From Eledone cirrhosa (taxonomy: Eukaryota), in the NCBI GenBank assembly GCA_964016885.1, contig CAXHJY010000263.1, forward strand, positions 1 to 52,929: a stretch of DNA of 52,929 nucleotides, read 5' to 3'. A program made the translations under genes and the position numbers. This document shows positions 1,660-30,667 of this stretch, in pieces. The notes beneath the pieces are model-generated. The model did no database searches and was not told where the DNA came from. It saw nothing but the letters and a program-made list of their open reading frames with translations. Numbering within the stretch: the first letter of the stretch is position 1; the number at the start of each line of letters is the position of its first letter.

Positions 1660-1737
1660 GTAAGCCAATCAATTTCATTTATTTTTTATTTGTCTGTCTT
1701 TCTGTCTAAATAGCAGTATTTCTATGTATATGTTGAG

Positions 1738-2640
<903 letters not shown>

Positions 2641-2800
2641 TCTTGTGTTTAAAGATGTTGACTAAATTGGTTGCGTATTCAATGCTCCAATCAGTAACAG
2701 ATGATGCTATTAGGTTCAAGCACTCAACGTCATGTGTATCCTTCTAAATGCGATTTTGTAGTGCATGACGAAACAAACGTACAATAAGGCCAGATGTAGA

Positions 2801-3083
2801 TATTGATAATTCATTTTATTCATAATCTGTCGTAATACATATTTCTGTGCCGTTAACATTTACGTATGGCTTCCATCACGCAACCACCAACACGACTGCC
2901 TCAAACGGCGTTTTAATTAATAGGGTGGTTATGAAATATTTCTAATGCAATGCAGGCTATCAACAATGGGATAGATAAATTCGATGTTGGTTCTATGAGA
3001 GTCCGTCAGCAGCATTACGTAAAGGTTAATGCCACAGAAATATGCATAACACAGTAGATTACGAATAAAATGAATTATGAATA
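2801..3083. repeat. Old diverged inverted repeat next to a (TA)n tract
   Basis: 2801-2866 (taattcattttattcataatct...atatttctgtgccgttaacatttacgta) is the approximate reverse complement of 3016-3083. Confidence 0.7.
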
Positions 3084-3108
3084 ACTAAATCTTGCTGTCG
3101 CATTTAAC

Positions 3109-3188
<80 letters not shown>

Positions 3189-3292
3189 TATGCACGCATT
3201 TATGTGTTTGAATACCTAACTATATCTATCTACACCTCTCTATCTACGTTAAATGCATCTCTATGCCTATCTGCCTGTCATTCTGACTATGT

Positions 3293-3361
<69 letters not shown>

Positions 3362-3556
3362 CCACTCTCCCTCTCTCTCCCTCTCTCACCCTTCTCTTTC
3401 TCTCCCTCACTCGCTCACTCTCTACCTATCAGTCTATTATTCCTCTCTATGCGTTAACCCTATTAGATGCCATTAACTATGTTTTTAACATTCATCATTA
3501 AATGCGAATGATTACAAGTTTGAACTTAACATTGATTGCGTAGCATACAAACATGT

Positions 3557-3695
<139 letters not shown>

Positions 3696-3846
3696 GATGT
3701 ATGTATATATATATACATATGAATACATACCAATATATATATAAATATATGCATATATATATTTAAACATAATACATATATATACATATATGTATATATA
3801 TATATATATATTAAAAAAAATATATATATAGATGCATACATATATA

Positions 3847-5590
3847 AATGAAGAGGCGGATTTTCAGGTCTTTACGAAGATCCGACTTCCACACCGATCT
3901 CAAGCTGTGGCACGCCGCCCAGTCTTTGCTCTTCCTCTCATCATCTTCCGTATTCCCAATCTTTGCTCCCAAATATAGGAAGTCCTCAACCAATTCTAGC
4001 GGCTTCCCGACTACATTAGTGATCCCCTCTGGCTTCTCAACCCCATTCTCAGCCCCACACTCATCGACACAGTCTCAATCTCCTGCATCAAATCCTCTGC
4101 CTCCTTCATTGTATTTGTCACCAAAACTATGTCGTCGTCAAATTCAGCATCTGATACCTTTTTCGCCTTAACTCTCCTGCTCTGAGCCGGTGCTACAGTA
4201 AAGCCAGAGTCCTGGTGTTTCTCCAGTGCAAGGCGCATACAATAGTCCACTAGGATGATAAAAAGGTAGGGAGCCAATGTATCTCCCTGGAGCACTCCAG
4301 CCAGTATCTCTAAGAACTCTGTCATCCCATCAGGTGTAATGACTTGGGCTTTGGTGTTGGTGTAGAGCAGTGATATCAGGTCCACTATCCTCTTGGGGAT
4401 TCCATAAGCCTGTAAGATCTTCATCAGGCAGTGACGGTCCACAGAATCAAAGGCCTTCCTAAAGTCAATGAAAACCATGACCACAGGAAGGCACTTTGCT
4501 CTAGCTCCCTCTAATATCCCCCTCAGCATCAGGATGTGACTGGTGGTTGATCTTCCCTCTCTGAAGCCGTTCTGGTTGTCCCTGAGCTTCCTCTCCATCT
4601 CAGGCTGGATCCTGTTAAGAATCATCCTGTTGAGGTTCTTTGCCACAAGTGACATCAGTGAAATCCCCCTGTATTTGTCGGTGCTAGAGAGATCTCCCTT
4701 CTTTGGGACTGGGACGATGTTACTGATCCTCCACTGATTCGAGGCAACTCCTTTCTCCAGTGCCTGGTTACAGAACCCCAGGATATCATCAAAATCACAC
4801 CTCTTCATCACCTCTGATGCCACTCCATCTTGTCCATGAGCCTTGCCCTCCTTGATCCTCTTCTTGGCTCTCTGAAGCGCCTCTCTGGTGAAGGCTCTGT
4901 CTCCATATCCAGTTCTTCAAACAGCCGCCTGATCTCCCCAGTGCTCTGGGCTGTGGAGGGTGGCTCTCCTAGTAGGGTCCTAAAATGGTCTAGCCATTTC
5001 CTCTTCCTATCCTCGAGCCCCGTTCCCTGGATCTGAATCGAACACCTTCTCTTCCTCCCTGTGATCTCGTTGATGATTATCCAGCTCTCCTTACATCCAG
5101 ATCTGTCAACCGCTCTCTCCACACTTCTGATCTTCTCTATCAGTGCCTCCTCTCTGGCCTCAGTGTAAGCGGTACAGAGTTCTTCCCTCATCACCTCCAC
5201 AGTCTCCATCCTCTCCTCCATAGGATCAGCATAGAATTGGTCCTTGGCAGCTTTCAGGTGTTCTCTGGCTGCACACACTTTTGGGTTTGCAGAGCTGACG
5301 TGCTTCCTTTTCTTCTTTTTCCTCCGCACCAGGGTTTCACTTGCTTCCGCCACTGCATTGGTGAAGTAGCCATACCTCCTCGTCACACTCTCCTCAGTCC
5401 ATCCAATCTCTCTCTCATCTGTCTCTCCACACAGAGCACTGAACCTGTTCCTCACTTCCACTGTGAACTTCTCCTGTAGCTTATCATCTTCCTTGAAAGC
5501 TCCCCAGTCATATATTGCTCTCCGGGGCTGAGCCTTGCTCTTTCTTAAGCTCACTCGGACCTCACTCATAACAAGCCGGTGGTCACTACT
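3847..5590 (-). mobile_element. RTE-clade LINE ORF (end of APE domain, linker, RT), inverted 5' segment
   Basis: ORFs 4808-5569 and 4011-4823 give SDHRLV, IVPVPKKGDLS..YRGISL, QNGFREGRST, FIDFRKAFDSV, GVLQGDTLAPYLF, FDDD (YADD-like) and FLYLG, ending at ...LKIRLF. Confidence 0.92.
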
Positions 5591-6018
5591 GTAGTGGAGT
5601 CTGTGCTGCTGTACGGGTCTGAGACTTGGACACTGACCAAGAAACTCACTCAGATGGTGGATGGGTGCTACACGAGAATGATGAGGATGGGATGGCTCTG
5701 AACATTAATCAGTATACACTGAGGATGAAAAACTCAGAGCTGTATGGGAACCTCCCAAAGGTCGGCTCAAAAGTGACACAGAGGAGACTGAGGTTAGCTG
5801 GACATGCTCACTGACATCCAGAGTTGACATTGCACTCAGTGCTCCTGTGGGAGCCGCTACATGGACACACTGGAAGAGGAAGACGAAGATTAACGTATGG
5901 TGACGCCCTAAGGACAGACACTGGTCTGTTGGAGACGCAGGACATGGCAGCGATAATGAGGGGCAGAGAGCGCTGGAGAGAACTCGTCCATGGATCTCGG
6001 GAATTTTACCCGCCCTAG
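5591..6018 (+). mobile_element. 3' end of the same RTE LINE in the opposite orientation
   Basis: Reads VESVLLYGSETWTLTKKL...DGCYTRM..MALNI...RRLRLAGH...LLWEPLHG..GRGRRRLTY...RERWR, which directly continues the KIRLF at 3848. Confidence 0.9.
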
Positions 6019-6059
<41 letters not shown>

Positions 6060-6229
6060 TATGTGTGTGTGTGCATCTGTGGTGCTGAAACCGCTTGGCG
6101 TCGTGAGCGGACTTTTACCTTCCTATATAAGTATATCTTTGTGTGTGTGAGTGTGTGTCAGATGTGTATATATATTTATATGTATTCCAACGTGAAAATG
6201 GACAACATATAAATAAATAAATAAATATA

Positions 6230-6261
<32 letters not shown>

Positions 6262-6678
6262 CATATTTGTACATATATATATATACATATTTGTACACAT
6301 AATATATATATATACACATATTTGTACATATAATATATACACGTGTGTTTGTGTATGTGTGTAATTTGCCGAAGAGGAACCGGGAACCACACTTAAATAA
6401 GGTACTATTTAGCTACAAAATTATGGCTATGACAGGAGATATTCGACGAAAGATTCATATTTCTATTTTCGGCCATTTTAATTTTTTACATTATTTAAGG
6501 ATACTAATATCCGTTGACCCTGTTTTACCCTATTCCGATTATAGATGTCTGTCATTAGATAATGTTTGGTAACCCGTAAAACACTTACCAACATATGTCT
6601 TGCAACAACCACATGATCATATATGTATAAATATATAAATAAATATATATATATATGCGTGTATGTATGCTTGTGTGC

Positions 6679-6729
<51 letters not shown>

Positions 6730-6910
6730 TATATACATATAAATATACATATATCTATATATATATTCATATATATATATATTATACATCTATATATATA
6801 TAAATATACATACATATATATAAATATACATATACATATATATATATTTATATATATATATATATATATATCTTTATATATATATATATAAATATATATA
6901 TATATGTGTG

Positions 6911-6948
<38 letters not shown>

Positions 6949-7053
6949 ATTATATATGTGTGTGTGTGTGTGTGTGTATGTGTGAATGAAGTAATTCCGT
7001 CGGAAAGGTACAGGAGTAAAAGAGTGCTCTATGTAGGTTACAGAGCTTATTAG

Positions 7054-7304
7054 TTATGTAATAAACAACATAAGATAATTATTTCATTTACCAGTGGTTT
7101 CTTGAAAGCAGATATATATATCTGTTTTCAGTCGTCAGAATGTATAAAAACATGGTGTCTTTATTAAATATGAATTTGAAAATCGTTTTCATAAAAACAT
7201 CATGTTTTTATTCATTCTGACGACTGAAAACAGATATAATAAATATCTGCTTTCAAGAAACCACTGGTAAATGAAATAATAATCTTAGGTTGTTTATTAC
7301 ATAA
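7054..7304. mobile_element. Fold-back element with a hammerhead ribozyme in each arm (PLE pLTR-derived)
   Basis: Arms 7054-7157 and 7198-7304 are near-perfect reverse complements; the right arm abuts (TA)n. Confidence 0.85.
7211..7275 (+). ncRNA. Type I hammerhead ribozyme (canonical core)
   Basis: Stem I TTCATT(7211-16)/AATGAA(7270-75); CTGACGA 7217-23; long stem II tgaaa.cagatat-aataa-atatctg.tttca; GAAA 7257-60; near-palindromic stem III ACCACTGGT; GTA cleavage triplet ending at 7269. Mirror copy on the - strand at 7083-7142. Confidence 0.8.
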
Positions 7305-7315
7305 TTATAACTATA

Positions 7316-7489
<174 letters not shown>

Positions 7490-7956
7490 AATATATATAT
7501 ATACGTACCCAGTTACTGGCATTATATGCATTGTTAACATTGATTGTATAATGTTTGTTTTTTAATTCGAAATACTTATTATTTCCTTTAAAATATGGCA
7601 CAAGGTCAGACAATATTTGCATATCTGATAAAAACGTTTCTAATTTCCACATCATTGGCATCGGTTTGAATGTTGATAGTTGTATTATTATTAATTATAT
7701 TATTGTTAATATTAAAATATATGTTTGCATTGGGTCGTCAATAAAATATATGTTTGCAATAAAATATATGTATGTCGTCATATGAAATTTGTAGAAATTA
7801 CTTGAAAGATAATAAATTTCTACAAATTTCATACTTGATGATACTTATAATTATGAATGTCTTCTAAACATTAAATTCGTTTCAACGAATTATTCTATCT
7901 GAATGTCATATAGATTAACTAATGGCACTGTATGTAAATATTACAATTTTGTGTCA

Positions 7957-8049
<93 letters not shown>

Positions 8050-8245
8050 ATCAAAAGATGGTTAAAAGAGTTCCATCTATTTTATTATGCGCATTTCAAA
8101 AACAAATATCATCATGCAATAACATTTGCGTTTTCGTCAGATAAAATAGGGAGACATGATATGAAGGTTAAAAAACACTTGTGAATAGTGCAGTTTTAAA
8201 TCAACATATGAAAAGTAGTTTTAGATTGATGTGTGATATTGAGAA

Positions 8246-8276
<31 letters not shown>

Positions 8277-8366
8277 TATTATTTATACTCCAGTCCTACA
8301 AACTGTAGAGTGCTACTTATCCAATATCTGCATTGCTTTATTGTACTACAATAAAACTAACCTCCT

Positions 8367-8706
<340 letters not shown>

Positions 8707-8818
8707 AAATGCTCGGACCTATCTTTGAGCTTATTTACGGGCGATATGGCGCACGCCGTTATGGCATGACACCCACAATTTCGATTTGGATTAAATTCAT
8801 TTAATTTATCTTAATTTT

Positions 8819-8862
<44 letters not shown>

Positions 8863-8882
8863 GTGTGTATATATATATGTAT

Positions 8883-9612
<730 letters not shown>

Positions 9613-10002
9613 TGCGAAAGACTAAAGAAGAGATACAGAAATATAGGTGAACAAGTTGGGGAAGATGATAGAAATGTAGCACGTGTTAATGTTTACATAT
9701 TGGTGAGCTAAAAAGCGGAAACACTTGACATATGTCTGTATGCACCGATATAAACGCACTCTTCCAAGCACATACACACAAATAAAAGAAGACACATATA
9801 ATGTGTGCGTGGGAGATTATTTGTAGTATTTTGCTGATACAGTAATATCTATGATCAGGGAAACACCGTATAATTTCTGTTCATATCATCAAATACCGTC
9901 CCTCTAGTTAACGCAACAAAACTCTTGATTTGTTCATCTTATAGATCTGCTAATTCGATTGTTCCATCCATCACGACTAAATTAGAAACCCATGTTAAAT
10001 AA

Positions 10003-10220
10003 TGGTTTCTTATATAGGCACAAGGTCAGCAATTTTTTTTCATTGGTGGTGGGAGGGGGTAAATGGACCTCAATGTATTACTGGTACTTTATTTTATCAA
10101 CCCCGTAAGGATGAAAGGCAAAGTTAACCTCGGCGGGATTTGAACTCAGATCATAAACAGGCCACTCTATGCTGCAAAGCATGGTGTCCGAACCTCTACT
10201 GATACTGACAATCCATCGCC
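10003..10220 (-). mobile_element. tRNA-headed SINE family A (Nin/Deu-domain-like core)
   Basis: B-box GAGTTCAAATCC and core GCCTTTCATCCTTACGGGGTYGATAAAATAAAGTACCAG; about 15 copies in the window. Confidence 0.85.
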
Positions 10221-10780
10221 CAAACCAATGTTAAATAATAAAAGAGTTCTAGACATGATCGATCATCATGTATCTTTCTATGATACGGTGTTCGTAAGAT
10301 CTTCTTATGCAATATATATGCCTTGTGTTAGAGAGATGTTTGTTAAAAGGGTCGTATGTATGTTTGAAGCAGAGATACAATGTTTAGGTCCAATGTCTGC
10401 ATTTGGTAACCAGTTCCGATTTTCTTTCTTTTGTGAGCGGACTCCCTTTCAGGCAGAATACAATTCTTTTGCGGTGTCTGTTGAGGATCTATGTACTTTG
10501 AATTCAAATGTCATCGAGGTCAACTTTGACTTTCGTAAATTTGGAGACAAATAAAGTACTAATCCAATGGCGGTGGATTTGTTAAAGTGCCAGTGTGCAA
10601 TCTGAATTAAAATCTGTTGGCGTTACGAAGAGCATTCGGCCGTAGAAGCCATGACAAAATAGGGCGCATCTTAGCGAGACGTGTTCATCCGGCCAATATA
10701 GGATGACAGTAGTTCCGATTCAGTACTGATTTGATCTGTAACTTGTCCAACTAGCATGATAACGATAACGATGCTAATAA

Positions 10781-11240
10781 TGGCACAAGGCCAACAATTT
10801 ACTGGCTGGTACTTTATTTTACCGACCCCGTAAGGATGAAAGGCAAAGCTAACCTCGGCGGGATTTGAAATCAGAACGTAAAGGGCCGTAACTATATGCT
10901 GCAAAGCATGTTGTCCGACGTTATACCAATACTGCCAATCCACAGCCTTATGGTGATGCTAATATTGGTTTCTTATATAGGCACAAGGCCAGCATGTTAT
11001 CCGGTACTCTTTCGATACCGCCAATACACTACCTTCACACCAGTTTAATAATTGTTTCTACATCTGGCGCACGGCCAGCAATTATCCCAGTGTATTACTG
11101 GTACTTTATTTTATCGACCCCGTAAGGATGAAAGGCAAAGTTAACCTTGGAGGGATTTGAACTCAGTCCGTAAAGGTACCTAATTTTATGCTGGAAAGCA
11201 TGCCCTCCGACTCTCTACTGATGCTGCCTATACATCGCCC
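10781..11240 (-). mobile_element. Cluster of three SINE family A copies (10781-10947, internally deleted 10964-11033, 11050-11240)
   Basis: Same core and tail (ggcacaaggccagca) repeated head-to-tail. Confidence 0.85.
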
Positions 11241-11520
11241 TATTATGATGTTAGTTCAACCTGCACTTCAACAGATCACATGTTTATATTATATATGTTG
11301 GTGTATTTTTGTTTCTTTAGAACTGCACACATAGATATATAGCTGCATGGCTGCACGTGCCTGTTGACAATGTAGCAAAGAGTATATATGCACCACTAAT
11401 AAACATATATCTGCATGTTTATCTGTCTTTTTTTTCTGCATGACAGCATCTTTCCCTTCATCTGTACTGGCATACAAACACATTCACACATACACACATA
11501 TACTTGTGTGTATATATATA

Positions 11521-11568
<48 letters not shown>

Positions 11569-11569
11569 A

Positions 11570-11685
<116 letters not shown>

Positions 11686-11723
11686 TGTATGTATATATAT
11701 ATATATATATATATACATATATG

Positions 11724-11760
<37 letters not shown>

Positions 11761-11894
11761 TTATATGTACATATATATCCATGTACATATATATATATAT
11801 ATACATATATGTATGTATATATATATATATGTATATATATGTATATATTTATATGTACATATATATCCATGTACATATATATATATATACATTT

Positions 11895-11956
<62 letters not shown>

Positions 11957-12311
11957 GGATTATGCAAGTTGTAGATGTCAAAGTAAGGAGCACTCAATAT
12001 AATGAATGTAGAGTTAATGCAGTTATAGATCCTTGCCATTTTTGGGTTCTCGTCATTTTCAAAATACTTTCATAGATCGAACATCGATCTTCTGACATTG
12101 ACTGATATCTTAAAGTATGTACGACCCCATCTAAGTGATGTATTTTCGGCACAAATATGAAATACTCTTTGCATCTGTTTGGTGCAATGTGCATGTATGT
12201 ACATACATACATATATATGTGTGTGTGGGCGTTTGTATGTCTGTGTGTGTAGTACATATTGTTATAGCAGTATGTATATGATATATATATATATAGACAT
12301 ATATATATATA

Positions 12312-12539
<228 letters not shown>

Positions 12540-12612
12540 TTGGTGGAAATATCCAAGGGTAAGAGTACTCAGTCCATAGGACGAGTTTAGTATAAATGAT
12601 TACAATTGCAAC

Positions 12613-12751
12613 AGTGACATAAACAGGTACTTATGTTTCATTGAGTTCGAGACCCCAACTCTCTCAGTATGTCATAAATACGTACATGATAGGCTGTGAA
12701 TGAGTTGGGGTCCAGAACCCCCACGAAACTTAAGCACCCGTTTATGTCACT
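12613..12751. mobile_element. Diverged fold-back with a degenerate hammerhead in each arm
   Basis: Arms 12613-12675 and 12686-12751. The + arm reads gtgaatga-gttgggg..cccc.ac-GAAAC-ttaag; the - arm reads ctgagaga-gttggg..ctcaat-GAAAC-ataa-GTA. Confidence 0.6.
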
Positions 12752-12772
12752 TTGTAATTATATATATGTATA

Positions 12773-12859
<87 letters not shown>

Positions 12860-13289
12860 GATTTATCAAAAGTTAGACAAAAATTAAAAATACAAGCATA
12901 AATATCAGAGGAATAAAGATAAAAGACAAAATTTGTTTTTGCTCTAACATGGTGGATACCTAAATGTATTAGTGAGTGAATGATAATAATATTATAAAAA
13001 TATTATTAATATTCGGTTCGTTTGCAAGCAAACAACCTCTCACTCCGTGTTGTTTCTGGATGACAACGTCATCTTTTTTGTTCCAGCACTAGCAGAGAGG
13101 AAACAGTCGTCAAATGTGTCGGAGTTAAGTTAAAGGAAATGGTAAATTTAATAAAGAATACATTTTTTCCAGCACATATCAAATGACATGTAATTAATTA
13201 TCAAAATAAGCAGTAATTAAATAACGAAGAGTAAAATAAACACTAAAAAATAAATGTAAAAAAGTAGAAACCACAAGCAATAAAAAGCT

Positions 13290-13473
13290 GATCCACTTGA
13301 TCTGCGGTCACCAAACTTTCGGACCTCACGGACCACTAAATTCATAATTTTAAATCCCGCGGATCACAAATATGAAATTTAAAAATGATAAATACACCAT
13401 TTTTCTGCAGACCACCAATATTTTGTCTCAGACCACCAATATTGGTCCGCGGACCACCTGTTGGCAACCGCTG
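13290..13473. mobile_element. hAT-type non-autonomous element end
   Basis: Terminus ggtccgcggaccacctgttggcaaccgctg, i.e. a CAGCGGTTGCCAAC TIR, with subterminal (c)ggaccac repeats. Confidence 0.55.
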
Positions 13474-13924
13474 CTCTATATAACCATTGAAATGATGTTA
13501 TTCATCTATGGAAAGTGTGTCATGGACATAGTAAACACAATTATTCTATTTATTGATTGTAAGGTTTGGTACATCTATTTTCTGTTGATTTTATTTTATT
13601 CTTTATTTTATTCTTTATTTGCTGCTTATTATATATATTTAACTACTTTTTTAAAATTATATTTTTAATTACTTATCATTTGCTCGGCGCTGCATTTAAA
13701 TTTTTTTTATTCTATATTCATAATGCAATAGCTATAAGCAGGAATGTTACTGAAACGACCGTAACGTATTAATCGGATGTTAAACGAATGATTTAACGCC
13801 AATGAAACCGAGATACATTGCGGGCTTAGGACAGATTTAAACTATTTTAAAAACTATATAGTGCAACGTTAACGAAAGTGAACACTCAAAAAACACAGTC
13901 CGGCAAATATTACATGTTTAACGG

Positions 13925-13981
<57 letters not shown>

Positions 13982-14011
13982 TACATGTATATATATATAT
14001 ATATATACATG

Positions 14012-14120
<109 letters not shown>

Positions 14121-14153
14121 ATATGTATATATATATAACTGTATAAATATATA

Positions 14154-14206
<53 letters not shown>

Positions 14207-14295
14207 GGATGTGTGTGTGTATGCATGTCTGTATGTGTGAATGTATATATGCATATTTACATACATGCACACATAGATACACATACATACATACA

Positions 14296-14328
<33 letters not shown>

Positions 14329-14793
14329 TCATACATACATACAAACACACATATATACATACATCAATCATCTAAATGAGTATATGCAGAGTGTATATAG
14401 TGATAGAAAGTAAGATCAAAAGAATCATTTTAAAATGACGAGGCTGAGTATGATAAATGACAATACAATACGGGATAGATTTAATGGTAAATCTTCACAT
14501 AGGACATCTTAAGCTTCAACGGGTGCATATTTCTATCTAATTCGGTGCTTAACTGCAACACGATATATATACATATATGTGTGTGTGTTTTTGTGTGTGT
14601 GTGTGTTTGTGTGCGTGTGTGTGTATATATATGTGTATATACATATTAATATATATATATATATATATGTACATATATATATATGTGTACATATATATAT
14701 TTGTGTGCATATATATACATATATATATATGTACATATATATATACATATATATATGTGTACATATATATATTTGTGTACATATATATATATA

Positions 14794-14835
<42 letters not shown>

Positions 14836-15312
14836 TATATATATGTACATATATATATATATATGTACATATATATATATATATATATATATGTACATAT
14901 ATAGGAATTGTACTTTTTAGTAAGTGACTTGATCTGAGGCTCTTGGAACTGGAGCAAATACATCATCCGTCATATTAGATAATTATGAACATAGAAACAT
15001 GGAAAAACGGTTATATTCAGTTTTCATTTATTGCTAGAGAGGTCAAACTTATTTTTGTTCAATAAATAAATAAATAAAGTGCACTAGAAAAGTAAAGAAC
15101 ACTCTTCCGGCTCTGAGTTCTATAAAAATCTTGCAATAACTATTTTTCAACAGCATCACTGTTTCAATGACGAGGTCACAAAAATGCGACGAAAAATTTG
15201 TCACCACAAGAAATAAACGAAATGATAAGGAACTCAACAGATTTAGTATGTTCTACAAACTTGGATGCAAATGCTCATTCGTTCACTAAATGTATATATA
15301 CACACACACGTA

Positions 15313-15416
<104 letters not shown>

Positions 15417-15710
15417 CACACACACACATACACATATATATATATATATATAATATGTATATATTTTAGAAATACATCGAGTTACTGTGTGTGTGAAACG
15501 TCAGCACTGATACATACACATGCAAACATCATACCATACGTTACATATACATAGAGACAACACGGGCGCACACACATTGTTCTTATCAAACAAAAGCTAC
15601 CGTCCTACACAGGACACATTATTTTTTTGAAGTAGGTAGTGAATCAGGGTGCGTGGAACACAGTGGTATTTTGTGGGAAGAGAAACAGAGTCTGCTAAAC
15701 ATACACACAC

Positions 15711-16148
<438 letters not shown>

Positions 16149-16263
16149 TATGTATATATATATATACACATATATAACTCCAATTATAATATATAAGAGT
16201 ATATGTGTATATATATGTGTATATATTTTTATATATATATATATAAGTGTATATATACATGTA

Positions 16264-16336
<73 letters not shown>

Positions 16337-16855
16337 GAAAAGTATAGAAATTGTTGTAGCGAGAAGCTAAGAGTATTCCATAACATATACCATAACATAT
16401 ATGCGACTATAGCGTCAAAATGGGAAAATAGTTAACATAAGATATGGGAAAAATAATTCAAACTCAATTCAAAAGGAATCAGGATATAGATTTATCCAAC
16501 AGAATTTAGAGAAATCCAAAGACTATTTCACGAAAACTTTCAGTGGAGATGGTCACGGTTGGATTTCGTTCCTCAGCAGAGCTCAACATGGTAACCAAGG
16601 TCTCACTGGTAATATGCCAAAAAGGGAATTTAAAAGCAGGCTAGTTTAACATCATGCATGGTTATTAAAATAAACGCACTTGTGTAAAAACAGGGCTGGT
16701 GACGTCAGAATGAGACAAATGTTTGTTTACATGAAACAACAGTCAAACACATTCCTAAAGAAAACTCTACAAAAGGAGTTCAGCAAAAAGCAATATCATC
16801 GCGGTTTTTTTCCAAAAAGAAATACCGGGATTAGTCACAAATAATATATAGTAGC

Positions 16856-16916
<61 letters not shown>

Positions 16917-16990
16917 GTATACATAGATATAGGTATATATATATATATGTATACATACATATATATATATACGTATATATATATTTGTAT

Positions 16991-17040
<50 letters not shown>

Positions 17041-17043
<3 letters not shown>

Positions 17044-17250
17044 GGCGTGTGGCTGAGTGGTTAGAGAATTGGATTCGCAATCGTAAGGTTGTGAGTTCGA
17101 TTCCTGGACCAGGCGATGCGTTATGTCCTTGAGCAAGACACTTTATTTCACGTTGCTCCTTCTACCTGGAGCGACCGATATTAGCAATTGGAAAGACTAA
17201 CGGAAACATTGTTCCCTCGGTCCGATTTGACGAAAGTCGATCGTTCCTTT
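17041..17250 (+). mobile_element. SINE family B variant
   Basis: tggctgagtggttagag, gagttcgattcc and tccttgagcaagacact; shares its 3' part with the copy at 32285-32516. Confidence 0.8.
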
Positions 17251-17403
17251 ATATATATATATATGTGTGTGTGTGTAGGTAGCTACTATATATCACCCAT
17301 TGACATCATGCTAGTGGGTAAAACTTCAGCTTATAAATTTCAGTTTTGGGGAGTCTCTGATCTCCAATTGTCGACAAATCTATCCAATATTCAGTTCTTG
17401 AAG

Positions 17404-17545
17404 GTTGCTACATTAGCAGAATTAGTAGAGCATTAGATGAAATCCACTTGCAACATTTGTTTTGGTTCTTTGCATTCTGAGTTCAAATCCCGCCATGGTC
17501 AACTCTATCTTTCTCACAAATTTGCTGGCCTTGTGCCTTAATTAA
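17404..17545 (+). mobile_element. Diverged SINE family A-related copy
   Basis: ttctgagttcaaatcccgcc...tgctggccttgtgcc. Confidence 0.65.
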
Positions 17546-17589
17546 AAATCAACTTTCAATCCTTCATCTTGTTCGTGGTTGTCCTTCTA

Positions 17590-18340
17590 CTTCTTTATTT
17601 GTGTCTATAGAATCCTGTCTCTTAACTTTCACTGTCCACCTGTTGTCATCCAATACTTTAGGAGTGACTAATTCAATTACATTTCAATGGTTTTATCAAC
17701 TTAACAATGACATATGCTTTTGTGTGTTTTTCTTATCGGTTTCGTTGTTCTATTGTCTTTCCACCGTATACCTGGTATAATGTTTATTGTTCATGACCAC
17801 GTTAACCTGGTCATGGCTTTGTTTGTTTGTTGTTTTTATCAGGTTCCATATTTCTTCATAAGAAATCGCTGTGGGCTGACACATTGTAAACTTGTCTTTT
17901 AAGGTTTAAGGACGGTTTGTTTTAAGAAATAGAATTTACCTTCTCGAGAGCTTTTTAGTCTAGCAAATCATTGTGTCTGTATTTTGTCTAAATGTAGAAT
18001 TATGTGTGTACGTTGAAACGAAGATATTTTTTCTCGGTTTTATCTATCGAACCACCAATTTTGGAATGTGCTAGAGTGTTGAAGTTATTGTTTATTTTAT
18101 TTTTTATTGAGTTTACGCCAATGTTCCAATACTTTCCCCATATAAGTTGTGGCTGTGTTCTTGCATTCTTTTTCCAGGCATCTCCTACCTTATACTACGT
18201 CTCAATTTTTACAGATTTATTTTTGGATTTTGTTTTTGCACATCTTGCAGCAATGTTTACTGGCACAGTAGGGCTTCTTGAAAATCGACAGCTAGATTCA
18301 TATCTTGTCACTTATGGTGTACTACGTCTCAGTTACACTG
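17590..18340 (-). mobile_element. Highly decayed LINE (RTE-like) 3' fragment
   Basis: Purine-rich minus strand with a remnant C-terminal pattern; many stops. Confidence 0.35.
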
Positions 18341-18342
18341 AC

Positions 18343-18567
18343 TACCAATAGGTACCAAGGTGCCTACTGGCCGTCAATGTAACGGATCTGGTACATAGCT
18401 AATGAAGTAACAATGTAACTATAGGTACCAAGTGCCTACTGGCCGTCAGTGTTACGGATCTGGTACATAACTAACGAAGTAACAATATACCAAAAGGTAA
18501 CAAGGTACCCAATGGCCGTCAGTGTAACAGATCTGGTGCATAGCTAACGAAGTAACAATGTAACAAT
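18343..18567. repeat. Tandem repeat, ~73 bp x 3
   Basis: Unit ggtaccaaggtgcctactggccgtcaatgtaacggatctggtacatagctaatgaagtaacaatgtaac repeated three times. Confidence 0.9.
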
Positions 18568-18648
18568 CAATAGCAACAGCAACAATTTATCAAGTAATAT
18601 TCACAAGACCACAGCGAAGGAATTAAGATTATCAAGCAACAATAACAT

Positions 18649-18825
18649 AATTGTTTCTACTTTTGGCACAAGGTCAGCAATTACCCAGTACATTTCTGGT
18701 ACTTTATTTTATCAACCCCGTAAGGATGAAAGGCAAAGTTAACCTCAGCGGGATTTGAACTCAGAATAGCAAGGGCCGTAACTCTATGTGTCAAAGCATG
18801 GTGTCCGACCCTCTACCGATGCTGC
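18649..18825 (-). mobile_element. SINE family A
   Basis: Shared core and tail. Confidence 0.85.
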
Positions 18826-18949
18826 GAGTGGCAAGTGCATCAAAAACACTAAAAAGTAACAGAGATATAACAACAATGACTATATCACCGCCACCAGCTT
18901 AATGGCAACCGGTCGAATAACTTAACACCAAGTAATACCACTAATACCG

Positions 18950-21300
18950 TAAATGATTCTATCGTGGCGGTCTGTCACATTACCTCCACGAACAACTATT
19001 ATAAAAAGGCAGTTGCTGGTGTTAACCTCTTCATAGGATAACATATCTGAGTATGTAAGAAACAAAGCAAGACTAGTAGTGTTGTAAAAGTAACTACCAA
19101 GAAAAATCAGAAGATCGTACAGAATGTCAGCAGAAAAGTCGCTTAGCTGTGTCCCTGAAATGGTTGGGAAATGCAGTGAAATGCACATTAACATGAGTCC
19201 TCCTGCATTTTCTGCATCTTCCAGTATACAGGCATAACATCTCTGGCATTTGCAAAGGCTGACATATGAGTAGGTGGAAAAATGACTGAATGCATTGTGA
19301 AACCAAACAAGCGTCACTCGCGGTAGGTGAAATTGAGCAGTAGACGTCAGGTTCCTCTTCGAAGGCGAGGCGAAGATCCACTCCATTGCTCTGGTTAATA
19401 ATGGGTAGTTTATTCTCATTCCGTCATGCCTTAGCCGGTAAGCAGCAACAGTGCTGGTAGTAGTTATACCGCCCAAAATAAGCATCTGGTGACGGCCATT
19501 TTTGACTGACGTGGAAGATGAGGTGACTACTCTGAGAGTACGTTGGAGAACTCGTCTGAGTAACGATGAAATGGAGTAAGAATTTGAGAAGCAGCACCCA
19601 GTTGCTTGTGGTGGTGAATGGGAGGTGGCCCAAGTACCACAATGTAGTGCCACTAAACATTTAGAAAACAAAAATAGGAAGGTCCACACGGCTACCAATC
19701 ACACAGCCACAGTCACAACAAAAATATCAGCAACCATAGCAGCAGCAATAATAGCAGAAGCAGCAACATCAACAATAAGAACAGCAACGGAATTCCTTGA
19801 ATACAATACAACAGATCACCAATACAGTAAAAAGCCTGTAGTGTCTCCCTCAGTAGGATAGAAACATATACGTGCAAAGCCTTACTTCTCCAGCCTTGCC
19901 TACAGTCTCTTTGATTCCGAGATTTCATCATGCGATGTACTTAAGGCAAAGGGCTGTCACAAAGTGTCATTTTTGTGGTAAATAAGAATGCAATACAAGC
20001 AAAAGGCAACTGCATGCCGGAAACCAAAACGTTTGATGAGGCGGGAGAAGGCCAATCAAGCCACCACACCCACACACTACTCCTTCCTCAACGACAATGG
20101 CGATAACAGCTAAACACTCAACTACATCATAAATAATGGGAAAACACAAATGCAACAACAACCACAGCAAAAACACCAACAGCCAAACTCACAAGAACCA
20201 TTCTCCGTTAACATTCCTGCTGTAGATAAAAATAATTTCAGTTGCTGGAAGCCATGACACATTAAAAGAAAAAAGGAAGACCTTTCAAGTTTTATCTCCA
20301 AAGCTCCATCGAACACCTAGATCTTGAAAATAAAATTTCAACATGGCGTGAGCATTTTCCGCAATAGAGAAAGCAAGACCCTCTTGGGGAAGTCGTTCAA
20401 GGATTCTTTGCCCTCTGAAAATACTGGACTGCCTGTCCTTTTCCAAAACTAAGGTAAGTCTCATTTCTTTTCTTCCGATCAGTCTGGCCTCACGCATAGT
20501 AGGTTGTATAAATGCAAGTGTCTTGGAAATAAAAGCACTTGCTAAGTGAACTCAGGTCATTAAACATAAATGGAATAACCACCATTGAGACCAAGATTTC
20601 AGGGATGACGATTTCCTACACATTTTCGACGTATATCTGGCTTATACATATCTTGGCCAACCTGGCACGTCCGGCAAGAAAGCAGCTTTATTTAGGAAAG
20701 GCCTAAAACTTAAAGTATGGATCTGCCATCTCGACTCGGTATTCAGTTTCATCCACAAATGGATTGGAAAGAGGCTATCTCTCTAAAAGCCGGACAAAAT
20801 TGGAAAATGTATACATCGTCTCCGTTTAATATTACTGCCTGACCGTTTTGCCTTGTCCTATGTTTTTTCTGACTAGACTGGAGTATCTGTCTGGAAGTAT
20901 CTACGTGGAAGTAGCACATTCCATTGGTCATGCGATGCATCTGCTTTCAACACCCTGCGCGAAGCGTTCAGTATATCATGACTGTTAATGCGTAGATAAG
21001 CACTACAGTTGTGGTATCTGCAGAAATTCCTAGACAGTATGTGAGCGTGGCTGCCTTTTTTTAAGATATGTTTTTCCATGGTTCGACTCTTTGATGGGAC
21101 TGCAGTCATGGATCAAGCAAATATATAGCTCCTATACAGGGCACGCATTTTGTTGAATGTTCTTCTACGTTAGATTTTCATAGGACGACAGCTAAGCAGT
21201 GATGTTATATAGCAATGGCATTCTCAAAGAAATTCTAGGCCTTGACGAGTATCCATTGGCTGATCTGTTTCGCGAGATTTTTATCGCAGAGAGACTATGA
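18950..21300 (+). mobile_element. Degenerate L1/Tx1-like LINE 5' half (ORF1 with zinc-knuckle remnant plus APE endonuclease start)
   Basis: Around 19605-19670 reads LVVVNGRWPK..CSATKHLENK (CCHC remnant). Around 20495-20600 reads IVGCINA...HLLSELRSLNINGITTIETKIS (APE N-terminus). Many stops and frameshifts. Confidence 0.5.
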
Positions 21301-21460
21301 ATAACTTCTGGAAATCACTAACCTGTCAGCTATCGACTAGGATGAAATAGCTGACAGGTTCGAGATGACCATTACAGGAATGGAGGTACTGCCAGCTACA
21401 CCTGTCTGAGGTGCATGTTGAGTGATAAAACTCATTTACATGAACTCATTATTATTATTG

Positions 21461-21560
21461 GTAGAGGGTCGGAAACCTTTCATCCTTACAGGGTCGATAA
21501 AATAAACCACCAGTAACGCACTGAGGTAATTGCTGGCCTTGTGTCAAAAGTAGAAACAAT
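21461..21560 (+). mobile_element. Internally deleted SINE family A
   Basis: gtagagggtcgga joined directly to cctttcatccttacagggtcgataaaataaa. Confidence 0.75.
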
Positions 21561-21677
21561 TATTATTATTATTATTTTCTTGGGGTCTCAGTCATTGATG
21601 TTATTTAACTGGAAAGTTTGTACAAATGAACATGAAGCCGCTACATGCAGTCTCAGATATTCAGGACGCATCAGAGG

Positions 21678-21736
<59 letters not shown>

Positions 21737-21850
21737 GGTGGTGGTGGTGGTGGTGGTGGTGGTGGTAGTAGCAGTAATTGTAGTAGTAATCGAAGAAGTA
21801 GTAGTAGTAGCAGCAGGAGCAGCAGCAGTAGTAGTAGTAGTAGTAGTAGT
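21678..21850. repeat. (GTA)n(GTG)n trinucleotide microsatellite
   Basis: Seen directly. Confidence 0.95.
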
Positions 21851-22203
21851 ATTTTCTTGCGTCCCCTTACATTCTGACTTCATATTTCATTAAAGTCAAC
21901 TTTAACCTTTCGTCAATTTTTTAATCGATAAAGTAAGTATCGGCGATACATTGAGAGATCGATATAATTGCCTCTACCTCCACCCATTCATTATCCATCT
22001 TATTAGTAATGAAGATATTTATCTTGTGATGTCCTATTCTGGTGCGATAAATGTTCTTGCTTCTATCATCAAAATAGCTTTGTTCATTCAGTCTAGGGTT
22101 ATTTTTCTCTCTAATTCACTTTTTATACGTGAAATATTCAGTCCGTTCCTGTGTTTTCCATAGTATCATCACTATGGTCGTCTGCTTTGTTGTCATCTTA
22201 GGT

Positions 22204-22396
22204 TTAACCTTTAGCATTTAAACCAGCCATATCTGGCCAGAATTCTTTCACCTCTTTCTATTCAAACCAGCCTTAACTGGCCGCTCATACTGACGTTAAG
22301 GTATTGATCTCAAAATAAATAATATCAAAGTCTAGTAGATTCTTTACCACAAAAATATAATAGTATATATAGAGTAATGTAAGTGCTAAAGGGTTA
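22204..22396. mobile_element. piggyBac-type MITE (TTAA target)
   Basis: ttaa-cctttagca...tgctaaaggg-tta; same family as 51930-52158. Confidence 0.7.
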
Positions 22397-22650
22397 TGGT
22401 TTTGTAGTTTAAAATCTGATCAAAATTCCTGGAAGTATTTTGTTAAAGTGTGAAAGTTCATTTACTGTCTTGTGTACGTTCATAGTCAACAAGGACATAT
22501 AAGCAAATCCCATTGTGAATTGGAGGAAAAGTAGTGGCTATCTTAATTAAGTCCTTCTTAAATCACCACAAGCTAGAAATGTCACCGTTTGTAGTTCTCT
22601 CTGTTTCGTGAGAATTTGACTAATAATTTTCATTCTTTAACATACTCTGA

Positions 22651-22864
22651 GGATGGTGGATTGACAGTATCGATAGAGGGTCGGACGCCATGCTTTGCAG
22701 CATAGAGTTACGGTTCCTTATGATCTGAGTTCAAATTCCGCCAAGGTTAACTTTGCCTTACGGGGTCGATAAAATAAAGTACCAGTAACGCACTGGGGTC
22801 GATTTAATCGACTTTCCTCCCCCCCCAAAAAATTGCTGGCCTTGTGCCTATATAAGAAACCATT
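22651..22864 (+). mobile_element. SINE family A, near full length
   Basis: Head, B-box, core and tail present. Confidence 0.85.
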
Positions 22865-23035
22865 CTTTAACTTACTCTTCATTTCCTTTTAATTTCTCTC
22901 TGATCTCTCTCCCCCCTCTCTCTCTCTCTGTCTTACACTCTTTATGAATGTTAATATTTCCTTGTTTCTAATATTCCCGTCACTCACTTTTTGTTCTCTC
23001 TTAAGAATTCTCACTGACATTTTAACTCTATATCA

Positions 23036-23450
23036 ATCTCTATATTTACTCTCTCTCACTTTATCCCTCTTTCTCTCTATATTTATTCTCGCACTTTATC
23101 CCACTTTCTCTCTAGATTTACTCTTTCTCAATTTATCCCTCTTTCTCTCTATATTTACTCTCTCTCTCTCACTTTATCTCTCTTTCTCTCTCTATTTACT
23201 CTCTCTCACTTTATCCCTCTTTCTCTCTATATTTACTCTCTCTCTCTCTCTCACTTTATCCCTCTTTCTCTCTATATTTCCTCTCTCTCTCACTTTATCC
23301 CTCTTTCTTTCTATATTTACTCTCTTTCACTTTATCCCTCTTTCTCTCTATATTTACTCTCTCTCTCTCACTTTATCTCTCTTTCTCTCTATATTTACTT
23401 TCTCTCTTCCTCTCTCTTTCTCCCCCGTCTCTATATTTACTCTCTCTCTT
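23036..23450. repeat. Pyrimidine-rich minisatellite (~34-40 bp unit)
   Basis: Unit ctctatatttactctctctcactttatccctcttt, roughly ten copies with variable (CT) length. Confidence 0.85.
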
Positions 23451-23771
23451 TCTCTCTCCCCCCTCTCTCTCTATTATTTTCTATTATCATCGCTAACAAC
23501 ACCGCCACACCCACAAGAGTTACGACTGCCAACAGTATTATTCTTACTCTATTTGAGTGACTTCCCTTAGCGAGAGAACCATCAACAATAAGTGGAAATC
23601 CATCTAAAAACAACAACGGTATTAACATAAAAATATATATTTAATTTCTTTTCTAATATTCTTTCTTCTTTCTCTTATTTATTCTTTATTTCTATAATTT
23701 TTTTATTTCGTAGAATCATTCATGTTGTTGCTATTACTTTTTGTTATTGCTGCTGTTGTCTGCTTTTAACT

Positions 23772-23835
<64 letters not shown>

Positions 23836-23849
23836 CAATAATAATAATG

Positions 23850-23908
<59 letters not shown>

Positions 23909-24266
23909 GCTAGTCTTTAACACGCATACACGAATGAACATACATACATACATACATACATCTACACACACATATATGTATATAAACATTACACGGCATT
24001 TGGATGAGTAGAGGAATAGTGAAAACTCCATGGGTCGGGAAGGTTAAGGAAATGCACACGGATAGGTGTTGTGGTGTTGTGGTTATCTTTCCCTGGTCAG
24101 GAAAAAGGTGATTGGCCTTACTAGTTTTAGTGCATATTAATGCATCATCGGTCATCACGTTCTCGTTTTCTTGTCCACAGAGAGAATAGCATCTGGTAGT
24201 TTACTTTGCATCACTCTCTATCTCTATAGTCTCTCTTTCTCCCCCCCCCCCCCCCACACTCATTAT

Positions 24267-24292
<26 letters not shown>

Positions 24293-24297
<5 letters not shown>

Positions 24298-24440
24298 AAT
24301 GTGAACACTAAAACCCAAAGATGGCTCGATAAGGATAAATATATATATCAAATATATAAGAACCATAGAGCAAATATTTATTAAAATAACAGATTAAAGT
24401 TTGAGCAAAGAATCGCTGCTTTCACCCTTAACGGGATCTT
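24293..24440 (-). mobile_element. HHR-module family X fragment
   Basis: Shares ~140 bp with 36500-36656 and 49820-49974; terminates at (G)AAGATCCCGTTAAGGGTGAAAGCAGCGATTC. Confidence 0.75.
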
Positions 24441-24458
24441 TTAATATATATATATATA

Positions 24459-24765
24459 TATTGTTATAATTTTTTTGGTGGGGAAGGGGCGTCATGTTGC
24501 CAATAAAAATATACGCACCTGTTGGTTTTCACTTCAATTTATTATAAATTTCAGGTTGACTGGTTGGTGCGATAATCGGAAGGTTATTTATATAATGTCA
24601 AAGCTCTTTCGTCACACATTTAGGGAAATTTATAATAAATTGAACTGAAAACTAACAGGTGCGTGTGTTTTCATTGGCAACATGACCCTCCCAAAGTATA
24701 ACAATATCTGTTTCAACACACGTTTTCAGATAAGAAATCTCGCTAAAAAAATTAAAAAAGGAATT
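24459..24765. mobile_element. Fold-back of family Y (same family as 36730-37350)
   Basis: Arms ~24459-24551 and ~24626-24707. The spacer holds the 3' half of the family Y hammerhead on the - strand (tgtgacGAAAgagctttgac). Confidence 0.75.
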
Positions 24766-24895
24766 ATATATATATATATATATATATATACAATATTTAA
24801 CATATTTAACATATTTATACTCTGCTATGTATTGAGTACCTTACTTACTGTGGTGACCTCCGATTGAACCCGGGATACACACACGCGCGCGCGCG

Positions 24896-24959
<64 letters not shown>

Positions 24960-25264
24960 CTATAATAAGGTTACATCAATACATATATTATGTATATTGA
25001 TTAAGTTATTCAACAAACGAAGCATAATGAACATTTAGGACAGAGCATTATACAAATTCCAACGTTATACGATAAAAAATAATCTTTCATATATCTGTTT
25101 CAGAAACGACTAGTATCATAAGCTACAATTTAGATGGAATCTCATTAGTGAAGCATGGTATAGCTAGTTGGACTGCTTTGTGTCCGAGAGACTCTACGAC
25201 GTTCGTCAGATCTTAGGTCTATAAGTTTAAGTTAATAAGGCTTAATATATATATATATAGGAAC

Positions 25265-25365
25265 GAGTAGGACCCCGACAAAGAATCGCTGCTTTAACCC
25301 TTAACGGGATCTTCAGAAGATCCCGTTAAGGCTGAAAGCATCGATTCTTTGTCGGGGTCCTACTC
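25265..25365. repeat. Palindrome (50-bp arms, 1-nt centre) folded exactly on a hammerhead CTGAAGA box
   Basis: gagtaggacccc...cttaacgggatcttc-a-gaagatcccgttaagg...ggggtcctactc; the centre is 25315. Confidence 0.85.
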
Positions 25366-25500
25366 TACTACCCTAAGTATTGAGTACTTTGGTGCGTTAT
25401 GGTCCATCTGGTTCCTTACCTCATTTCCTTCGTTATATATATATATATATATATATATCCTGATTATTACAGGAATTCTATAAGAATCCAGCTTCTATAA

Positions 25501-25591
25501 TTTTCGGCGGAAACAGGGGAGTGCGTGGCTCTGATGAACGCTAACCAGCGTGAATCAGACTGTCAGCTTCTCTCCCTTCTTTCGCCGAAAA
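25501..25591 (+). ncRNA. Type I hammerhead ribozyme with extended stem I (one core substitution)
   Basis: ttttcggcg/cgccgaaaa, gggag/ctccc and gct/agc form stem I; CTGATGA 25531-37; stem II acgct-aacc-agcgt; GAAT instead of GAAA at 25552-55; stem III cagactg; GTC ending at 25564. Confidence 0.75.
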
Positions 25592-25692
25592 GAAGTAAGT
25601 GACATAGTCAGTACTTTAAAACTGATAGCGTATTGTCTTCTAAATGATTTTAATTAAACATACGGTATATTGCCAAATATACCGTACATACA

Positions 25693-25794
<102 letters not shown>

Positions 25795-25800
25795 CATACA

Positions 25801-26224
25801 TAAAAGAACAGAATGCCGGACTTAGAATATCCTTTTATAGTTTTAATGTAGCAAAAAAAACTTATACCTATTTCAATGGCCAAATTACATCATCCGATCA
25901 TGACGCGAAACCTTGGAGACATCGTCAGGTGTGGATTGCATAATCAGTTAATCAATATACTTTATCCAGAGACGGCTTGAGATGGTTCGCCCCAACAACA
26001 ACGACGAATTTCTCGAGTTATCTCTGGATCAAGTATATTATCTGCTTGTGTTTGCCATAATTGCTTTCATTGATTAACTGATTATGCTATCCGAACCTGA
26101 TGATGTCGCCAAGGTTTTGCGTCATAATCAGATTATGTAACTTGGCCATTGATATATGTATAGCGTTTTTTGCAACATTAAAACTTTAAATGGATATATC
26201 CAGTCTGGCCTTCTGTTGTTTTAA
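25801..26224. repeat. Diverged long inverted repeat with a nested inner inverted repeat
   Basis: 25801-25956 versus 26069-26224; inner arms atactttatccagaga..cttgaga and tctcgag..tctctggatcaagtat. Confidence 0.8.
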
Positions 26225-26419
26225 ATAAATACTTAACTCTGTGTCTACACCTTCCACAGGATTCACCATCTTCGATGGATGAGTTGCATAACGAAGAGTG
26301 CTTTTCTTACTATTACATCATAGTATACTAACCGGAATGACCAGTTCTACCCATTGGTAAACCCCCACAACATAAATGGCATATGTATCTCACTCTCCCT
26401 CCTTCTTCTCTCCCTCTCT

Positions 26420-26521
<102 letters not shown>

Positions 26522-26611
26522 GCAAAAGGTAAACAGAATACAACACAACAACACAATCGGTACAGTATATGGAAGCAATATATTAGGTTAACGCTTGAAA
26601 TAGCAGAAAGA

Positions 26612-26650
26612 GGGTTTTAGCGTTTCGGACCCTAGTCCTTCATCAGAAGA
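26612..26650 (-). ncRNA. Minimal PLE-type hammerhead motif
   Basis: The minus strand reads CTGATGA-a-ggac-tagg-gtcc-GAAA-cgcta. Stems I and III are poorly formed. Confidence 0.6.
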
Positions 26651-26942
26651 AAGAATGAAAAATTAGAAAGATTGAAGTGAGGGGGTGGTGGAATTAGGCA
26701 CACAGTATTGAAATGAATTCTTTATATTAATGGTACTTAATGTATCGGTCCTAAAAACGATAAACATAATTAGACAAAGTAAGCAGGGGGAGGGAAGGGG
26801 TAAATGAGTGAGAGGGAAAGAAAGAGAAAGAGAGATAGAGTGAGAGAAATAGAATGAATCTGAAAGGCAAAGTAAAAAATAATGCCAACATAATTTGAAC
26901 CCATGTCATGTTCACATACATAAACACACACATACACCACAT

Positions 26943-27068
<126 letters not shown>

Positions 27069-27087
27069 GTGTAACACACAAGTTATT

Positions 27088-27453
27088 ATATATTGGTAAA
27101 CGGAATAGAAAATGCTGACAAATTGTTCACAGTGAAAAATAGTTTAATTAGGAATAAATGAGAATTAGTAATTATATTGGTTAGTATTCAGTTTTGGTTT
27201 TAAGTTTTACCGGTTGAGCATTTCTAAATGCTTTTCAAAAATAATTTTGAGATAGAGCGTCCGTGATGTTTGCTCTGATCAGATCACGGACGCTCTATCT
27301 CAAAATTATTTTTGAAAAGCATTTAGAAATGCTCAACCGGTAAAACTTAAAACCAAAACTGAATACTAACCAATACAATTACTAATTCTCATTTATTCCT
27401 AATTAAACTATTTTTCACTGTGAACAATTTGTCAGCATTTTCTATTCCGTTTA

Positions 27454-27462
<9 letters not shown>
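27088..27462. mobile_element. Near-perfect fold-back (arms ~180 bp) within (TA)n, with a degenerate hammerhead skeleton
   Basis: 27088-27267 is the reverse complement of 27283-27462 with one visible mismatch. 27312-27342 reads TTGAAAA-gcatt-taga-aatgc-TCAA-ccgGTA. Confidence 0.85.
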
Positions 27463-27536
<74 letters not shown>

Positions 27537-27750
27537 CTGTGTGTGTGTGTTTAATCTTGATATCCAATCTTCATCACCCTCTCTTCAGCTAAAATAGTCT
27601 AGCTGGTTAAGTGGTAAATGAAAAGTTCGGTTTAAAATCAAAGAATCTTTGTTCGGGGTTCGACCTTTAACTTTTATCTCATTTACTTCGAAATATTTAT
27701 TTTTATCCTTCTCTTTGTGCTATTTGTGTATATTCATGCATGCTTTGATT

Positions 27751-27831
<81 letters not shown>

Positions 27832-28262: not shown

Positions 28263-28361
28263 GCGAGCGCCCTTCATCAACTAACATAATACAAACGAAA
28301 ATATAATCACAATACGAAATAAACCACGTAGTATTCTTTACCTTCTCCTTTCTCCACAAAG

Positions 28362-30632: not shown

Positions 30633-30667
<35 letters not shown>

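Follow-up and report, generated by a model that had tools for sequence, protein, structure and literature searches.

The window, by which we mean the whole 52,929-nt stretch analysed here, carries three + strand exons of an octopod SMOC1-like gene, located by tblastn with Octopus and Argonauta SMOC1-like proteins. Exons at 1583-1659 and 30767-30859 flank the long intron listed in Table 1, the next exon lies at 51392-51623, and a Thyroglobulin_1 domain match supports the assignment of the host gene. Relative to the Octopus proteins, the exons at 1583-1659 and 51392-51623 contain single-base frameshifts (near 1644 and 51514, respectively), which are probably assembly errors; otherwise the allele is broken. 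The exon at 30767-30859 is found in homologues P0002, P0004 and P0005 and is missing from P0001 and P0003. Its phase is compatible with skipping, and it is probably alternatively spliced. Inside the intron lies a 257-bp palindrome, the arms of which are 88.9% identical over 261 columns by self-BLAST, and each arm carries a hammerhead motif, one on either strand.

Table 1. Coordinates of the palindromic insertion, its hammerhead motifs and the surrounding features
Feature	Position	Strand	Evidence
Host intron, 29.1 kb, SMOC1-like gene	1660..30766	+	tblastn, AG/GT borders
Left microsatellite flank (TC, TA, TG runs)	6902..6984		sequence
Family-derived 3´ extension (tail), left arm only	6993..7050	-	family reads
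Head-to-head palindromic insertion, two 3´-end fragments of one repeat family	7051..7307		self-BLAST, folding
Type I hammerhead motif, - copy	7083..7144	-	motif scan, arm alignment, family reads
Inversion junction (hairpin tip), absent from most family copies	7166..7189		arm alignment, read depth
Type I hammerhead motif, + copy	7211..7275	+	motif scan, isolated fold
Near-palindromic stem III/loop 3	7260..7268	+	8/9 positions self-complementary
Right (TA)n flank, likely target site	7311..7501		sequence
Solo hammerhead motif of unrelated family	8085..8149 (C3 8140)	-	structure-aware scan

Both arms have the type I core (C3-U4-G5-A6-N7-G8-A9, G12-A13-A14, A15.1-U16.1 and H17). In the + copy, CUGACGA occupies 7217-7223 (C3 at 7217) and the second core segment 7257-7260 (G12 at 7257). 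Stem I consists of six pairs (7211-7216 with 7270-7275) and stem III of three pairs with a 3-nt loop, while U16.1 and H17 of the GUA fall at 7268 and 7269, placing the predicted cut after 7269, exactly where the initial annotation had put it. Helix II (7225-7255) comprises 12 pairs and an A·C mismatch in its interior (7230/7250); in the - copy (C3 7138, G12 7101, H17 7089) there are 11 pairs, bearing out the proposed pair of hammerheads with a long stem II. The accompanying description of the cores as intact and complete holds for the core positions of both arms but not for the adjoining elements: positions 10.1 and 11.1 are C·A rather than G-C in either copy (7224/7256 in the + copy), and stem I of the - arm is broken. 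Although the arms are near-identical, two differences fall within the motif, one of which, a substitution at 7143, disrupts the fifth pair of stem I in the - copy to leave four contiguous pairs. The pairing base is present in 220 of 226 family reads, and the change in the - arm is private. The other difference is a 3-nt indel in the helix II loop (AAUAA in the + copy, a 4-nt UA run in the - copy), which may in part be an assembly error given the single-base indels in two of the three exons. Thus, the loops do differ between the arms as had been noted, but the stem cannot be said to have been preserved by selection at 7083-7275, since the arms are near-identical, one difference breaks stem I and the TA-run loop lies in an indel-bearing assembly.

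When folded in isolation, the + copy adopted the hammerhead as its minimum-energy fold, with the three-helix junction formed (z = -3.8). In the isolated - copy, stem I did not fold and the junction was not formed. A structure-aware scan of the window returned five motifs, compared with a mean of 0.01 (maximum 1) in 100 local shuffles, and the hammerhead motif pair is real. With the Rfam covariance models, no family reached the gathering score in the window, and an E-value scan of 6950-7350 (E up to 10) gave 34 matches, none at the gathering score and none to a hammerhead family; most were sub-threshold miRNA or generic hairpin matches, which we rejected as reflections of the long hairpin. Likewise set aside as chance were 34 metagenome and two viral loci from a pattern scan. 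None of these 36 had a clean helix II in register, the five inspected in detail fall within long ORFs, and the element had no BLAST match to any of the 36.

The palindrome belongs to a repeat family, which we counted in four of the 16 runs listed for the sequence (no RNA run is among the 16) by mapping on 6985-7185, the left arm plus tail, at 80% likeness. This gave 2,294 contigs in run X1 and 3,745 RAD-seq reads in run X14, as well as 17 contigs and 1 contig in runs that carry two further organism labels. The sequence common to the family extends from ~7152 to 6993 (~160 bp) and begins just before the hammerhead, read depth in X14 falling from ~120 at 7146-7152 to ~8 at 7153-7159. At the other side, 268 molecules among the family reads end at 6993, and a second set of copies stops at 7051, next to a TA run (256 reads in X14 and 21 contigs in X1), the same point at which the right arm ends. 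These two end classes fit an optional tail and an inverted 5´-truncated copy, as described for Penelope-like elements (PLEs) in PMC8557442 and PMC11167929. Strand-switch joints occur in the family reads at varied places (six rows, 3-5 reads each). We also noted that loose ends at 7015-7021 repeat neighbouring tail sequence, which suggests that many copies of the family have a short tandem duplication within the tail.

These observations bear on two other views of the insertion. The palindrome could be a MITE-like or fold-back non-autonomous unit in its own right, one that spreads whole and merely happens to contain hammerhead sequence; the window does contain many palindromes of this sort, several of them flanked by TA runs. 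Family coverage collapses past 7152, however, so the centre is not common to the copies, and with joints at varied places and a tail on one arm only, we regard such a unit as unlikely. Nor do we give much credence to the idea that the insertion is a scrambled piece of a non-LTR retrozyme or satellite-like family, rather than the end of an autonomous PLE. The shared sequence is indeed short and starts just before the hammerhead, and retrozymes are reported to be derivatives of PLE pseudo-LTRs (pLTRs) in bioRxiv 10.64898/2026.07.22.740005. Against this, self-BLAST detected a single inverted copy and no tandem same-strand repeat in the window, retrozymes are described in the same source as depleted from introns, and helix II of canonical retrozyme motifs is 4 bp long according to PMC4209133.

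Sequence variation in the family is informative about the motif. In X14, 1,181 reads diverge from the reference at 7110. By eye, their loose letters, and those of the single X6 contig, form another outer helix II, ~10 pairs long, next to an unchanged C·A opening and core. Most relatives have this other helix II of ~10 bp. The long stem is thus an inherited family trait, the outer half of which was replaced with pairing kept. The stem II singled out by the initial annotation as unusually long is so when set against published PLE hammerheads; it is not special within this genome. Twelve of the 13 core positions are without a variant at ≥5%, and only the free N7, which shares one CpG with G8, varies (51 of 339 reads). 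For comparison, variation is seen at 23 of the 87 non-core positions of 7051-7150, giving a chance of ~0.025 for 0 of 12, modest evidence since the reads are related and clustered rather than independent. Among 14 stem-position variants, which are unphased, eight maintain or re-create a pair, both repairs of the A·C among them, four break one (three at the two loop-side pairs and one in stem I), one depends on phase and one leaves the opening mismatch, with the proviso that transitions often retain pairs by chance. At position 10.1 the family has C (89%) or A (38 of 345 reads), there is no listed variant at 11.1, and G-C at 10.1/11.1 was never seen in family reads. Signs of selection are present at the level of the family only.

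The near-palindromic stem III offers a possible contact between copies. The self-duplex of 7260-7268 has a computed energy of -8.2 kcal/mol, and two same-strand + copies cofolded at -33.8 kcal/mol, versus 2 x -12.4 kcal/mol, with contact via this segment and a gain of ~9 kcal/mol. A palindromic stem III is the typical dimer interface of PLE hammerheads, and 7260-7268 is alike. The arrangement at this locus is of a different kind, in that the complement is transcribed before the ribozyme on either strand because the arms are joined head to head. In folding computed with proteins absent, 7030-7320 formed a single hairpin (-154.5 kcal/mol, z -27), and for 7051-7290 the hairpin reached -128.1 kcal/mol versus -51.3 kcal/mol for the forced hammerhead, a gap of ~77 kcal/mol. 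The probability of the hammerhead fold was ~1e-53 in this context versus ~0.07-0.1 alone, and addition of upstream sequence to 7130 had already lowered it to 1e-16. Prefix folding showed 7213-7224 (the 5´ strand of stem I plus CUGACGA) paired to the upstream arm with a probability of ~1, before the GAAA and the cut site emerge. The - strand transcript behaved in the same way. The opposite-strand partner cannot provide the stem III dimer and would instead act as a built-in antisense strand. Random A-to-G changes, used as a proxy for editing, left gaps of 42-75 kcal/mol, with the proviso that G overstates inosine pairing, and at each level between 5 and 15 of the 15 runs had a conserved core A changed; on these grounds we rejected editing as a way to rescue the ribozyme. 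According to the folding, only a transcript starting inside the palindrome centre could free the motif, and the hammerhead pair in the host transcript probably does not cut.

That the + copy would cleave the SMOC1-like pre-mRNA in cis as an active ribozyme, with an effect on splicing or transcript level, is invited by its complete core, its intact stem I, its minimum-energy fold when isolated and its place in a sense-strand intron, but we consider this highly improbable given the computed gap to the hairpin and the capture that precedes completion of the motif, the failure of the A-to-G proxy to close that gap or spare the core adenosines, the lack of a second same-strand copy for a dimer in the window by self-BLAST, the C·A at 10.1/11.1, and the low or protein-dependent activity reported for PLE motifs in PMC4209133 and PMC11167929. 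The initial annotation was right to place the + copy in the host pre-mRNA, but its choice of this copy as the best candidate for an active ribozyme is not supported, given the predicted capture by the antisense arm, which is transcribed first.

We instead favour, as quite probable, an ordinary insertion of a high-copy Penelope-like family in the intron, now a silent relic with masked hammerheads. A short 3´-end (pseudo-LTR) fragment and an inverted copy would have inserted into a TA microsatellite within the intron, each fragment bringing the type I hammerhead of a PLE. In the original setting of tandem same-strand copies in the element RNA, the motif most likely would have cleaved weakly as a dimer via the palindromic stem III, possibly aided by an element protein, by analogy with other PLEs; helix II, long and A-U-rich, and the C·A opening would be inherited family traits. 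The head-to-head geometry would put an antisense arm upstream of each ribozyme and give a pre-mRNA hairpin of ~125 bp. With the motif masked, the intron would remain uncut, and the stretch would more likely be a substrate, as dsRNA, for ADAR or small-RNA pathways. We infer the PLE origin from the architecture of the insertion, and past dimer activity, silence in vivo and editing are likewise proposed by inference.

With regard to that architecture, the insertion resembles the inverted 5´-truncated PLE insertions of Craig et al. 2021 (PMC8557442) and the PAc insertions of PMC11167929 in having an inverted copy joined at the 5´ end, an optional one-sided tail and a microsatellite or AT-rich target, to which a high copy number can be added. 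It differs from them in lacking an ORF remnant and in having a somewhat longer tail (~58-66 nt here versus the 30-40 bp described in PMC11167929). Within the window, we found no RT or GIY-YIG ORF linked to the family. The only RT fragment (4014-4916; RVT_1, E 1.4e-28), part of a decayed LINE-type stretch at 4011-5704 (-), looks like an unrelated LINE. A second decayed fragment of LINE type, with a weak endonuclease match, was seen at 32963-33250 (+).

The palindrome at 7051-7307 is not an isolated oddity. A masked self-BLAST found 13 long palindromes (91-526 bp) at sites in 7762-48111, covering 3,341 bases or 6.3% of the window, all of them intronic with respect to the host gene and most adjoining TA runs, and at least two others carry opposite-strand hammerhead motifs. 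Those at 24491-24686 and 36815-37340 look related. Around six other hammerhead-like families are present in the window. The solo motif 0.9 kb from the palindrome, which is antisense to the host gene and ends at a TA run, has 15 of 16 pairs in a helix II that opens with A-U, a stem I of 9 bp and a stem III that is a perfect 8-nt palindrome, and is a cleaner long-stem case than the pair at 7083-7275. Two families represented at 45470 (-) and 47881 (-) combine a short helix II opening with U·U and a perfectly palindromic stem III; the + partner of the latter, near 47972 within 47741-48111, has lost A9. Motifs of the conventional PLE type, which have the 5´ bulge and G10.1-C11.1, were seen at 37003 (-)/37152 (+), a pair that sits in a near-perfect 526-bp palindrome, at 46134 (+), a sense copy that stands alone, has a weak stem I and is not masked by an adjacent arm, and at 26646 (-). 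A minisatellite array with a period of ~46-49 bp occupies 38234-39645.

As one of many transposon remnants, and predicted to be silent, the locus itself has little significance. It does call for caution with inverted hammerhead pairs in introns, which by predicted folding mask themselves. At the level of the family, the natural range of the hammerhead would be extended with respect to helix II length and the lack of G10.1-C11.1, and PLE palindromes become a possible source of intronic dsRNA in cephalopods. A broader proposal, which we advance only tentatively and think somewhat doubtful, is that octopods harbour a PLE sub-type whose hammerheads open helix II with a 1x1 mismatch instead of G10.1-C11.1, such as the C·A here or the U·U of two other families in the window, sometimes have a 10-15 bp A-U-rich helix and are active as dimers, that head-to-head insertion auto-silences the copies, and that the palindromes may be a main dsRNA source of octopus hyper-editing.

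A role of the hairpin as dsRNA is plausible in light of known ADAR substrates. Palindromic repeats that fold on themselves, such as frog Harbinger and lizard Penelope, are heavily edited according to PMC5625713, a survey in which octopus ranks among the top two for hyper-editing signal and was left out of the repeat analysis. In those substrates, a single insertion self-folds into tight dsRNA with a short loop, as is predicted here. The likeness to other intronic hammerheads is more limited. Type I motifs of amniote introns and non-LTR retrozymes share the type I core, and the canonical amniote motifs also the intronic position, but they have a 4-bp helix II with tertiary contacts between its loop and stem I, as outlined in PMC4209133, a geometry impossible here. 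Unlike them, the motif in this intron has thousands of relatives and would be masked by an adjoining antisense arm.

The closest match is with the hammerheads of PLEs from Drosophila, rotifers, mosquito, shrimp and Saccoglossus, described by Cervera & De la Pena 2014 (PMC4209133). These have the same type I topology and CUGANGAH core, a U-rich 5´ flank, a short stem I and a palindromic stem III, and are similarly dispersed genome-wide with opposite-strand pairs at short distance (100-700 bp apart in that paper). They are characterized there by a lengthened helix II, one additional base following A9, a palindromic loop 3 and low activity, and PLE motifs have elsewhere been described as weak in vitro (also the review PMC6765202) or protein-assisted (PMC11167929). 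With 11-12 pairs, helix II in our motifs exceeds the 3-8 pairs that we counted by eye for the 56 PLE hammerheads of Fig. S3 in PMC4209133, where 7-8 bp is already called larger than usual, and the ~10 pairs of the majority subfamily are also beyond this range. C·A stands here in place of G10.1-C11.1, a pair described as highly conserved among PLE hammerheads. In Perreault et al. (PMC3088659), G10.1-C11.1 is the most conserved pair after A15.1-U16.1, though a natural U·U is reported. If the motif is instead read with the PLE bulge, helix II opens with U-A, which has a precedent in 2 of the 56 rows, and an extra A precedes GAAA, with a precedent in 1 of the 56 entries. Every oddity of the motif except the length of helix II thus has a precedent. 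No cephalopod is among the 56, and the literature searched contained no account of octopus hammerheads or of a long-helix, mismatch-opening variant, which Lunse et al. 2017 or the supplement of PMC4209133 may cover. Collectively, the comparisons point to a family that is a variant of the PLE pseudo-LTR hammerhead, departing from two features of the consensus, G10.1-C11.1 and the length of helix II.
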